64,000 nucleotides of DNA from positions 16,244,001-16,308,000 of the forward strand of contig JAWMAR010000005.1 in the NCBI GenBank assembly GCA_036785375.1. Direction: 5' to 3'. The translations under genes and the position numbers were made by a program. The notes below the pieces were generated by a model, which was not told the DNA's origin, made no database searches, and saw only the letters and a program-made list of their open reading frames with translations. Positions 5,440-46,310 of the stretch are shown one piece after another (within the stretch, counting starts at the first letter, position 1; each line of letters opens with the position of its first letter). Origin of the DNA: Leucoraja ocellata. Taxonomy: Eukaryota.

Positions 5440-5561
5440 AAGAACTGCAGATGCTGGAAAAATCGAAGGTAGACAAAAATGCTGGAGAAACTCAGTGGGT
5501 GAGGCAGCATCTATGGAGTGAAGGAATAGGTGACGTTTCGGGTCAAGACCCTTCTTCAGAC
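5440..5561 (-). mobile_element. Solo Penelope terminal-repeat (pLTR) fragment with hammerhead core
   Basis: Homologous to the end of the Penelope element at 6325-6460; minus strand 5532-5559 reads CTGAAGAAGGGTCTTGACCCGAAACGTC. Confidence 0.8.
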
Positions 5562-6324
5562 AATTTCATTATCGTTAATGTGTTGGTAGAGGTGGAGCTG
5601 TCTGAATGCAAATAATAATTGTGTACGAGAGTTCTACACTAATGCAAGTGTAAATACAAAATGCTTTTCAAGGAGGTGAGCATATATCTCGTGGCCGTTG
5701 CCGCTGCTTGGCGCAATCACTACACCATGACTATTTTACCAGTGTTGACTAAATTCTGATTGCAAATGTGCAGCAAAGGTCTTTTGATAGGCAGTGACAT
5801 GGGCAATGTATAGGCAAGGCTATTTGCTTTGAAAGGTGGTGGACTGGCATCACAAACTAGTGTAGTCCATGTGATGAAAATGTTCTTTTAGTTGTTTGAA
5901 ACAACTATACATCAAAGAGAAGTTGAAAGTGGGCTGTATTTATCTGGGACAGCAGCCACAGAATGCCGAGTACACTGCCAACCAAATGAGCTTTAAATGT
6001 TGTTATCTTGAGGGTCTGTTTTTGAATCTTTTTTCAATAGTTCCAATTCTCAACCTGTATGATAAGACTTCAACATGCATTCCATGGATTATCAGTACTT
6101 TCAATTGCACACATGAACCACAATGTGACGTTGCATAAACTGCACTTTTATTTCCAGACTATGGAATGTTTTTGTAAGGAATTGAGAGTGTGGAAGGATG
6201 GAGATGATGCTGCAGGGGAGTGCAAACCATTAACATGCTGAGTTTATGCAGCATGGAGGCAACTGTTTGACCCATCATCCCTGAGCTGCTAGTGCCTAGT
6301 GCTCCACTTTATGCACAGTGTGTA

Positions 6325-7890
6325 GGAATGGACTGCAGATGCTGGTTTAACCCAAGGATAGACACAAAAAGCTGGAGTAACTCAGCGGGACAGGCAGCAT
6401 CTCTGGAGAGAAGGAATGGGTGACATTTCGGGTCAAGACCGTTTTTCAGACTGGTTAGGGAGAAGGGAAATGAGAGATATTGGCGATGATGTTGAGAGAT
6501 AAAGAACAAATGAATGAAAGATATGCAAAAAAGTTACGATGATAAAGGAAACAGGCCATTGTTAGCTGTTTGTTGGGTGAAAATGAGAAGCTAGTGCGAC
6601 TTGGATGGGGGAGGGATAGAGTGAGAGGGAATGCCGGAGATACCTGACGTTAGAGAAATCAATGTTCATACCACTGGGCTGTAAACTGCCCAAGTGAAAT
6701 ATGAGATGCTGTTCTTCTAATTTGCATTTAGTCTCACTCTGACAATGGAGGAGACCAAGGACAGAAAGGTCTGTGTGGGAATGAGAAGGTGAATTAAAGT
6801 GTTTAGCAACCGGGAGATTAGGTAGGTTAAGGTGGGGCGAGCGAAGGTGTTTAGCGAAACTATTGTCCAGTTTACGTTTGGTCTCACCGATGTATAAGAG
6901 TCCATACCTTGAACAACGGATACAGTAGATAAGGTTGGAGGAGGTGCAAGTGAAACTCTGCCTAACCTGAATGGACTGTCGGGGTTCCTGGACAGAGTTG
7001 AGGGAGGAGGTAAAGGGACAGGTGTTGCATTTTCTGTGGTTGCAGGGGAAAGTACCTAGGGAGGGGTGGTTTGGGTGAGTTAACCAGGGAGTTGCGGAGG
7101 AACGGTTTCTGCGGAAGGCGGAACGGGGTGGAGATGGGAAGATGTGGCTCGTGGTGGAATCCTCTTGGAGGTGGCGGAAATTTCAGAGGATTATGTGTTG
7201 TATGCGACGGCTGATGGGGTGGAAGATAAGGACTAGGGGGACTCTGTTGGGACTAGGGGGAAGGGGGATTAAGGAACTGTGGGGTACCAAGGAGACACTA
7301 GTGAGGGCCTCATCTATGATGGGAGAGGGGAACCCCCGTTCCCTAGAGAATAAAGACATCTCGGATGTCCTGGTATGGAACACCTCATCTTGGCCACAAA
7401 TGCGGCATAGACGAAGGAATTGGGAGTAGGGGATAAAATTTTTGCAGGAAACCAGGTGGGAAGAAGTGTAGTCTAGATAGTTGTAGGAGTCAGTGGGTTT
7501 GTAATAGACGTCAGTCGATAGTCTATTTCCCGTGATGGAGACGGTGAGATCAAGAAAGGGGAGGGAGGTGTCAGAGATGGTCCAAGTATATTTGAGTGCA
7601 GGTTGGAAATTGATGATGAAGTTGATGAAGTCCATGAGTTCTGCATGGGTTCAGGAGGTAGCACCGATGCAGTCGTCAATGTAACGGAGGCAGAGTTTTG
7701 GGGATAGGGCCAGTGTACGCCTGGAACAGGGATTGTTCAATGTACCCTACAAAGTGGCAGGAATAGCTGGGGCCCATGCAGGTGCCCATACGCCTTGGAT
7801 TTGGAGGAAGTAAGGAGTTGAAGGAGAAGTTATTAACGGTGAGGAGAGGGAAATTGGATGGTTCTGCGGTCGAGGAAGAAACTGAGGGCT
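6325..7890 (-). mobile_element. Penelope-like retroelement (Neptune-type): decayed RT, GIY-YIG endonuclease and pLTR
   Basis: NNFSF..MGTCMGPSY (ORF 7676..7978); LRYIDDCIG at about 7689-7663; LPFLDL..DVYYKPTD.NYLDYTSSH..IPYSQFLRL (ORF 7183..7635); FTCTSSNLIYCIRCSRYGLLYIGETKR at about 6955-6875. Confidence 0.93.
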
Positions 7891-45145: not shown

Positions 45146-45779
45146 AATGAACTGGTGGTGAGCTGCCTGGTAAGCCTTTGCTCCCAGTCCACTGCTTCTG
45201 ATTGTGCTCACCTCTCAAGAGTCAAGAAATCTTACATTTACTTCTGTCCACCTCTGATATGGGGAAAGCTTTCCTGCATTCACCCTATCTTAATTTTATA
45301 TTCCTCAAGCATGTCCCCTCTTAACCTTTTCCACTCCAGGAAGAATAGTCCTAGTTCTTCAGTCTCTTCCTAACTGTAACACTCCAACCCAGGCAAGCTC
45401 CTGGTGAATCTCCACTGCACCCTCTCCCATGCTGTTGCATCCTATGTGTAGTGTGTGGTGACCAGAAATGTACGCAACAGTCGAGACCCAACCAACATTT
45501 TGTAAAATCAGCATTATCTTCCTGCATTAGTTAGGTACAAATGGCTTGAACTCACATTTGTGGTGAGTTTCATTCATTGTAAATGCACCGTGCACAATAG
45601 ATCATGTATTTCAGACCATTCAGTCTTCATTGCAATCCACTATCCATTATTGTAAAGTTGATCTTTTAATCTGTGTGCCCTGCAGTGATAATGCAGACAC
45701 CAAGGACAGCAGCCTGCATTAAGCCAAGTAGACCACGATTGCTGAACGCTTCCAAGTGTAATCTGAACAAAACAATCAT

Positions 45780-46310
45780 AGCCATTCCCTTCGCCAAACA
45801 CTTGCACTCAGTTTGCCAACACCTACCAAATCACACGGTGGCTCACCATTTTAACTCCCTTCCCCATGCCCATACTGACCTTTCTATATGGGCCTCCTCC
45901 TTTGCCAGAGCGAGGCCACGTGCAAACTGGAGCAACAGCACTCATATTCTACTTGCTGAATTTTAGTTCACCTCTAACAACCCCCTGTCTCCCCCACACA
46001 CCCCTTTCTTTCCCCAATGTGCCCCATCTGGACTCACATCTATTTTTCCCCTCTCTCCTCCACCTATATTCCTTCCTCAAGCTTCACAATTCGCAACTCT
46101 TCAATCATTTTGTCTCATTCCTTTTTTTATATCTCTGGCCTTTGTCCAACCTTCTGCCTATCAATACTCCCCTCGCCTTGTCCTGCCTCTCCTCTCTTCT
46201 AGCTTTCTTCCCCCAATCAGTCAGAAGGGTCCAGACAGAAACGCCGCCTGTCCATGCTCTCCAGAGATGCTGCCTGACCCGTTGAGTTACTCCAGCACTT
46301 TGTGTCTCCC
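45780..46310 (+). mobile_element. Old Penelope 3' fragment (GIY-YIG C-terminus and pLTR)
   Basis: FAKHLHSVCQHLPNHTVAHHFNSLPHAHTDLS; degenerate pLTR at 46220-46305. Confidence 0.7.

Follow-up and report, generated by a model that had tools for sequence, protein, structure and literature searches.

Hammerhead-bearing repeats in a Leucoraja ocellata genome segment are probably dead-end copies of the terminal repeat of a Neptune-type Penelope-like element

A 64,000-nucleotide (nt) stretch of the genome of Leucoraja ocellata (contig JAWMAR010000005.1, positions 16,244,001 to 16,308,000; here called the window) carries dispersed copies of a minimal hammerhead ribozyme motif. An initial annotation had suggested that they form a retrozyme-like non-autonomous family and that some lie within the pre-mRNA of the gene EHBP1. 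Do these short repeats multiply as ribozymes, or were they left behind by an autonomous element? We favour the second answer, with a probability of about 0.7: the repeats represent the 132-nt pseudo-long terminal repeat (pLTR) of a Neptune-type Penelope-like element (PLE), in solo, inverted and truncated form, and are likely dead-end complementary DNAs (cDNAs), not a self-propagating ribozyme family. The motif is a known kind in a known kind of element, Penelope hammerheads of fishes having first been described in 2014; the ribozyme find is thus ordinary, and the window copies are mostly dead. The single notable oddity of this family is that most copies start at the front edge of the motif, where an initiator-like site suggests internally primed run-off cDNAs. 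This is of modest interest for the mechanism of insertion; the retrozyme and EHBP1 claims are not supported.

A pattern search of the window with up to three mismatches gave six motif matches versus 0.03 expected: 5536-5559(-), 6426-6449(-), 13679-13702(+), 14869-14892(-), 15189-15212(-), and 28117-28140(+). Two further copies, at 41549 and 46223, are decayed, so that every site first reported holds the motif or what is left of it. All eight named sites are the 5' end of one 132-nt repeat, in agreement with the initial description of a shared repeat of about 120 bp that ends a Penelope element; it also ends the element at 6320-7918. A model of this repeat has 14 matches in the window, which go beyond the eight named copies. 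The motif does recur as described, but its core is intact in only two of the eight (5559- and 14892-). A descriptor of the minimal hammerhead passed these two, both with helix I of at most 2 bp, and one match unrelated to the pLTR family. An Rfam scan of the window gave no match to a hammerhead family at E ≤ 5.

The whole 3.44-Gb assembly was searched with the intact-core pattern, which yielded 77,520 exact matches and none for the reversed pattern used as control. Earlier counts for coelacanth and Xenopus, obtained by different methods, were far lower, about 4,000-9,000 (PMC4209133). Evenly placed 10-kb stretches amounting to 1 Mb contained 516 repeat matches, the sample used below; a second tally of 729 matches in 1.4 Mb extrapolates to about 1.8 million copies. 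These counts may be inflated by near-identical duplicate stretches in the assembly (e.g., L161/L162). Further near-identical locus pairs, on different or the same contigs, are L005/L006, L010/L013, L166/L167, L171/L172, and L173/L174, which suggests retained haplotype duplicates. Endonuclease DNA was present within 450 nt upstream in 38 of the 516 sampled copies, a ratio of non-coding to coding copies of about 13 to 1. The earlier statement that solo repeats outnumber coding copies therefore holds for non-coding copies as a whole; only three of the eight named copies are solo. All core letters were kept in 111 of the 234 sampled copies covering the motif, and 48 of the 234 also kept the palindrome and a full helix II. 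Losses were concentrated at CpG (68-77% identity vs about 92%), and the ACGT palindrome has decayed to 69-71% identity. We propose that genomic copies decay neutrally, chiefly at CpG.

The ends of the short copies bear on their origin. At the 5' side, 260 of 516 copies begin at model positions 1-4. The 218 copies that could be anchored divide as follows: 134 end no more than 8 nt from this edge, 25 keep 9-29 nt of the element's untranslated region (UTR), 55 run into the shared UTR, and 4 are tandem; the background rate of 5' ends inside the repeat is 0.53% of copies per nt. The 3' ends fall at two points about 32 nt apart, near 100 (199/516) and near 132 (203/516). Neighbouring copies form 95 head-to-head pairs, 7 tail-to-tail pairs, and 20 same-strand arrangements, and 59 of the 95 head-to-head pairs have one 3' end of each kind. 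The two 3' ends correspond to the published Penelope 'tail' (PMC11167929; PMC8557442), which in vitro work traced to a pair of internal priming sites (PMC11167929). Of 97 solos, 24 are bounded by exact repeats of at least 7 nt, as are 37 of the 71 pairs examined; shuffled pairings gave 3.7 and 3.1%, respectively. No pile-up of ends was found at the ribozyme cut site, with 12 starts at positions 29-33 versus 14 and 17 in the adjoining intervals, and 3 of 278 3' ends at position 30. Apparent end peaks at 36-43 were rejected as artefacts of ungapped extension over small indels. All six subfamily classes include solo, inverted, and UTR-attached copies. Given the target-site duplications, the two 3' ends, the pile-up at the edge, the absence of ends at the cut site, and the mixed subfamilies, we read the solos as cDNAs of an autonomous element.

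The parent element can be read on the minus strand at 6320-7918, where the C-terminal half of a reverse transcriptase (RT), a Cys-x4-Cys-x2-Cys linker, and a GIY-YIG domain were recognized directly by their motifs. Profile matches were below the curated cut-offs (PF01541, E 0.0077, on the window element; RVT_1, E 0.0043, in a sister copy), and four of the six scanned element frames had no match to an RT or endonuclease profile. Long copies have the 5' region of the open reading frame (ORF) immediately after the repeat, with 432 exact junctions, which identifies the repeat as a pLTR. The GIY-YIG domain and Cys linker upstream of the repeat, the RT in sister copies, and the repeat-ORF junctions all support Penelope identity as judged from sequence. 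The Cys linker marks Neptune or Nematis (PMC8557442), and by this motif the element is placed as a Neptune-type endonuclease-bearing (EN+) PLE. Further traits of EN+ PLEs are present, namely pLTRs at both ends, inverted copies, a tail on one end, and a target-site duplication. The described Neptune clade (Craig et al., 2021; PMC8557442) likewise combines RT, Cys linker, and C-terminal GIY-YIG with 5' truncation, inverted pLTRs, and a 30-40-nt tail on one end; unlike that clade, the skate genome has mostly pLTR-only insertions with a sharp 5' edge. A literature search, which covered subscription journals thinly and left supplements aside, returned no paper on the skate family or on such an edge.

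A close parallel is the Poseidon element PAc of Anolis (Frangieh et al., 2024; PMC11167929). It has two internal priming sites matching the tail, an uncut RNA as template, and no ends at the cut site; the skate copies have no such ends either, and their template would likewise be uncut RNA primed at two internal points. Its ORF begins inside the hammerhead, whereas the likely ATG of the skate element, as read from long copies, lies about 30 nt beyond the pLTR. Protein-assisted cleavage was shown for PAc and is hypothetical for the skate element. At loci L192 and L180, the likely start codon overlaps a perfect splice-donor-like sequence.

The initial identification of a minimal type I hammerhead in the pLTR of a Penelope-like element agrees with the published layout of the minimal type (PMC4209133). 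The CUGANGA and GAAA boxes and a UH cut triplet are present. All subfamily consensuses possess an extra base after A9, the G10.1-C11.1 pair, and helix II, and in all of them the ACGT palindrome replaces helix III, as initially proposed. Several traits are shared with the minimal hammerheads of metazoan PLEs, among them Xena, Poseidon, and Neptune of fishes (Cervera and De la Peña, 2014; PMC4209133): the type I order, the extra base between A9 and G10.1, the G10.1-C11.1 pair, and a palindrome where helix III would be. As in those PLEs, single motifs are scattered in their thousands, and truncated elements give rise to opposite-strand pairs. Among the differences, the skate helix II has 4 bp, and its helix I has 2 bp, as in Drosophila virilis, compared to 4-5 bp in the Schistosoma family (PMC4209133).

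Conservation was assessed in nine related clusters built from 284 of the 516 copies. The core was invariant at all 11 positions versus 44 of 65 downstream positions (one-sided p 0.02, with the clusters being related), while copy-level identity was 0.928 in the core and 0.907 in neighbouring bases (p 0.08). On the proposed check, that the core be conserved better than its surroundings, the difference between clusters is suggestive, and among individual copies the core is no better kept. Changes in the first 32 positions affect the loop, the H base, or convert U-A to U-G; the latter is the subfamily change and keeps pairing. No two-sided compensatory change was seen among the major subfamilies. 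The same core occurs with unrelated flanks in 120 metagenome loci, among which are 29 tblastn matches to the endonuclease. Helix I, which was outside the search pattern, measures 3-6 bp in 89 of 123 metagenome matches and in 87 of 111 metagenome homologues, and its letters differ between families. Judging from these comparisons, the lineage descends from a true hammerhead.

Judged from folding, unaided cleavage by the genomic copies is nonetheless unlikely, since helix I is mostly 2 bp and a competing hairpin is predicted. Among 72 intact skate copies, helix I has 2 bp in 50 and at least 3 bp in 6. For helix II, the predicted probability has a median of 0.005 in these copies versus 0.98 in the 111 metagenome homologues, because a purine run pairs with the pyrimidines that follow the cut site. 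Summed over all registers, pairing of the helix II GGG downstream of the cut site is predicted in 67% of the 72 copies, and the competing hairpin joins positions 3-13 with 37-49. A forced double hammerhead lies 17-26 kcal/mol above the best dimer fold, compared to 10-12 kcal/mol for two metagenome references. The findings suggest that intact hammerhead cores, many of them intronic, can number in the tens of thousands in a genome without harm; a minimal helix I and the predicted competing fold would account for this tolerance.

We suggest the following course of events. The RT of the element would prime internally at one of two 3' points. Priming in the upstream repeat would lead to run-off at the RNA 5' end, an initiator-like YYAGTCY, about 100-130 nt away, where fold-back or template switching would produce the head-to-head pairs. 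The template would be uncut RNA, as the copies extend across the cut site. Any activity of the hammerhead would be confined to the active element and to a dimer assisted by protein. At the edge, YYAGWYY was found in 44 of 49 UTR-attached copies; this motif fits the initiator and the splice-acceptor consensus alike. Run-off at the RNA 5' end appears the likeliest cause of the edge, with stalling at RNA structure as its main rival.

A more specific version of this proposal is tentative. In it, the main product would be a run-off cDNA of 100 or 132 nt, a counterpart of retroviral strong-stop DNA, primed in the upstream repeat and extended to a start just before the hammerhead. It would have been inserted by itself, after folding back, or after a jump to a second RNA, giving rise to more than one million copies, and the core would have been kept while helix I shrank to 2 bp. 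If so, the start site of a PLE and its two priming sites would be recorded in the genome to the base, and direct dimers of 227-303 nt would be retrozymes at birth. Core retention with a shrunken helix I would then point to a protein-dependent ribozyme or a non-catalytic role. The use of the family is as a very large natural record of PLE insertion, a mechanism that is poorly resolved. Thousands of copies are available for counting the fixed 5' edge, the two 3' ends, the inverted pairs, and the duplications, from which direct predictions follow for start-site mapping and in vitro priming.

Several points weigh against the favoured explanation as a whole. The RNA start site is deduced from genomic end points. 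The edge peak has a shoulder, with 25 of 159 solo or inverted copies keeping 9-29 nt of UTR, and one start site alone leaves these unexplained. The letters at the edge also fit a 3' splice site. An excess of cap-derived G at position -1 was not found; among 67 short solos, G made up 19%. Transcription of the D. virilis element starts upstream of an intron, away from the hammerhead (PMC2377424; PMC4209133). The subfamily classes are coarse, so that small solo-only lineages could escape notice, and the folding energies take no account of protein or tertiary contacts.

The edge could also have arisen, with the same origin of the copies, from RT stalling or template switching at RNA structure, either the hammerhead dimer or the 3-13/37-49 hairpin. 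We consider this unlikely. The predicted pairing of the helix II GGG past the cut site in most intact copies, the 55 of 218 copies that continue through the edge into the UTR, and the shoulder of short UTR remnants are all in its favour. A hairpin, however, is expected to halt the enzyme at its 3' foot, around 42-49, and no peak occurs there in the profile alignment (12 starts at 39-43).

To about the same small degree we credit a splicing origin, in which the edge is a 3' splice site and an intron, like that of D. virilis Penelope, takes up the UTR between the ORF stop and the hammerhead. A GT at the stop codon and a pyrimidine tract with YAG at the edge recur across otherwise unlike UTRs, and helix I is where the intron of D. 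virilis ends (PMC4209133). The GT is shifted by one base in one subfamily, however, and splicing leaves the solos with unrelated upstream DNA unexplained and would not lengthen helix I. No spliced joints were found in the genome versus 913 unspliced ones, a weak argument as Penelope elements retain introns. An exact spliced joint was also absent among the 15 joints listed of 56 in contigs of four runs, which weighs neither way. In-frame reading of the repeat after splicing was rejected, as an ATG of their own follows the repeat in long copies. The UTR of the window element, at 6452-6645(-) (L137:2726-2919), resembles the D. virilis intron in its GT and YAG bounds and pyrimidine tract; its spliced form was not found.

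More doubtful still is a spread in the manner of short interspersed elements, in which solos, having retained a priming site and an internal promoter, are re-copied in trans. Penelope promoters are internal to the pLTR (PMC2377424), the solos have fixed ends and duplications, and the copies number about 1.8 million by extrapolation. Against this, there is no solo-only subfamily, and solos are without the ORF sequence that the Anolis template needs downstream of its priming sites (PMC11167929).

The retrozyme interpretation, in which solos are monomers of a small RNA that cleaves itself, circularises, and is re-inserted, is largely refuted and we regard it as very improbable. The excess of non-coding copies speaks for it. 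Animal retrozymes, which have their origin in pLTRs and are reported for one chondrichthyan, are likewise non-coding and carry a type I hammerhead (Li et al., bioRxiv 2026.07.22.740005). Those non-LTR retrozymes consist of tandem units with a complete hammerhead in each (bioRxiv 2026.07.22.740005), whereas the skate copies are solo or inverted, with rare direct dimers of unlike joints. The proposed retrozyme-like family thus found no support in a fixed tandem unit, in ends at the cut site, which the copies avoid, or in a solo-only subfamily, as all six classes hold UTR-attached copies. The test for a tandem unit is based on the 1-Mb sample, in which the 20 same-strand neighbours had unlike joints. 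Animal non-LTR retrozymes were reportedly treated by Cervera in 2020.

Direct dimers deserve mention in this context. They consist of a pLTR, a 90-125-nt ORF stub, and a second pLTR; two were present in the 1-Mb sample. Seven distinct ones, with a spacing of 227-303 nt, occurred in 30 loci chosen for a pLTR-ORF junction, a point in favour of the retrozyme reading. The seven had seven different joints, however; one tested joint was found at 100% only at itself and at one identical second place, and a joint pattern search gave one match. Such mini-dimers are located at L327, L330, L340/L341, L347/L348, L350, L351, and L352, as well as L099 and L106. They are the best substrates for a dimer assay and possible retrozyme precursors. 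The ends of their stubs are clustered, which may indicate a third point at which the template ends or the enzyme jumps. Also, a single locus (L332) has three tandem 168-nt units, each an inverted pLTR plus a direct piece to model position 28, near the cut site.

The host gene is EHBP1. A coding exon at 50040-50163(+), at the start of the bMERB domain, matches EHBP1 structures (PDB 6zsh, E 1.3e-20), which places the gene on the plus strand and both intact motif copies antisense to it. The gene was found by PF12130 and PDB searches but not by a PF10358 profile search. A probable further exon extends from 18890 onward (+). Five of the 14 pLTR matches in the window are on the plus strand, a sample without power for strand bias in the intron. 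The expectation that sense copies lie in the EHBP1 pre-mRNA is correct for four named copies, all of which are broken. That they cleave this pre-mRNA and affect the gene is highly improbable, as none of the four passes the descriptor, the predicted probability of helix II is 0.0 for 13679 and 28117, and the window has no intact sense partner for a dimer; the window copies are accordingly predicted not to cut it.

Four of the eight named copies have Penelope UTR or endonuclease DNA upstream (6320, 13677, 15115, 46223), three are solo (5432, 14765, 41549), and one is an arm of an inverted pair (28116). G5, G8, and G12 are essential in the hammerhead; C3 and G8 have been shown to be so (PMC11167929). 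The two intact cores reside in minus-strand solos, each with an 8-bp target-site duplication. The first, at 5432-5561, is a full-length pLTR with tail (core 5532-5559, helix I 2 bp); the second, at 14765-14893, is of the UUCG/GUU subfamily (core 14865-14892, helix I 1 bp).

The 5'-truncated Neptune-type element at 6320-7918(-) has its GIY-YIG domain at 6565-7182 and terminates in a pyrimidine-rich UTR and a 3' pLTR at 6320-6451, whose core (6422) is dead by G8A. A truncated element at 15115-15562(-) comprises the endonuclease end, UTR, and a tail-less pLTR reaching model position 100, with G5A in the core (15185). On the plus strand, sense to EHBP1, the truncated element at 13353-13798 has a UTR interrupted by another repeat at about 13442-13608 and a pLTR at 13677-13798; its core letters are kept, and a G-to-T change disrupts helix II. 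An old truncated element at 45786-46314(+) retains an endonuclease remnant (45786-45957), UTR, and a pLTR with broken core (46223-46314). The latter copy and an old solo at 41549-41643(+), sense to EHBP1, lack CUG.

The head-to-head inverted pair at 28032-28240 has a minus arm of model 13-98 and a plus arm of model 2-132, with a tail on a single arm and a dead plus core (G12A). It is flanked by a 16-nt repeat with one mismatch. The pair amounts to a near-perfect predicted hairpin of 100 bp inside an EHBP1 intron (-151 kcal/mol for the plus copy 28117 with its inverted arm). A Rfam match to MIR2118 at 28058-28187 (44 bits, cut-off 85) was rejected, as it is this pair. Inverted pairs make up 190 of the 516 sampled matches and could supply double-stranded RNA, editing substrates, or false microRNA calls.

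The remaining matches are fragments. One at 8200-8276(-), missed in the initial annotation, starts at model position 24 and lacks the CUGA half. Two adjoining fragments at 52530-52636(-) (model 44-99 and 44-96) and old fragments at 148-198(-) and 20215-20272(+) have no hammerhead.

A second, commoner repeat family, which resembles long interspersed elements and has copies about 90% identical, occupies 20666-22292, 30695-31995, 35476-37109, and other parts of the window. It has inserted into or beside Penelope copies at 13442-13608, 14954-15035, and 15545-15841. Tandem repeat arrays are located at 56029-56924, 33845-34355, and 9993-10323.

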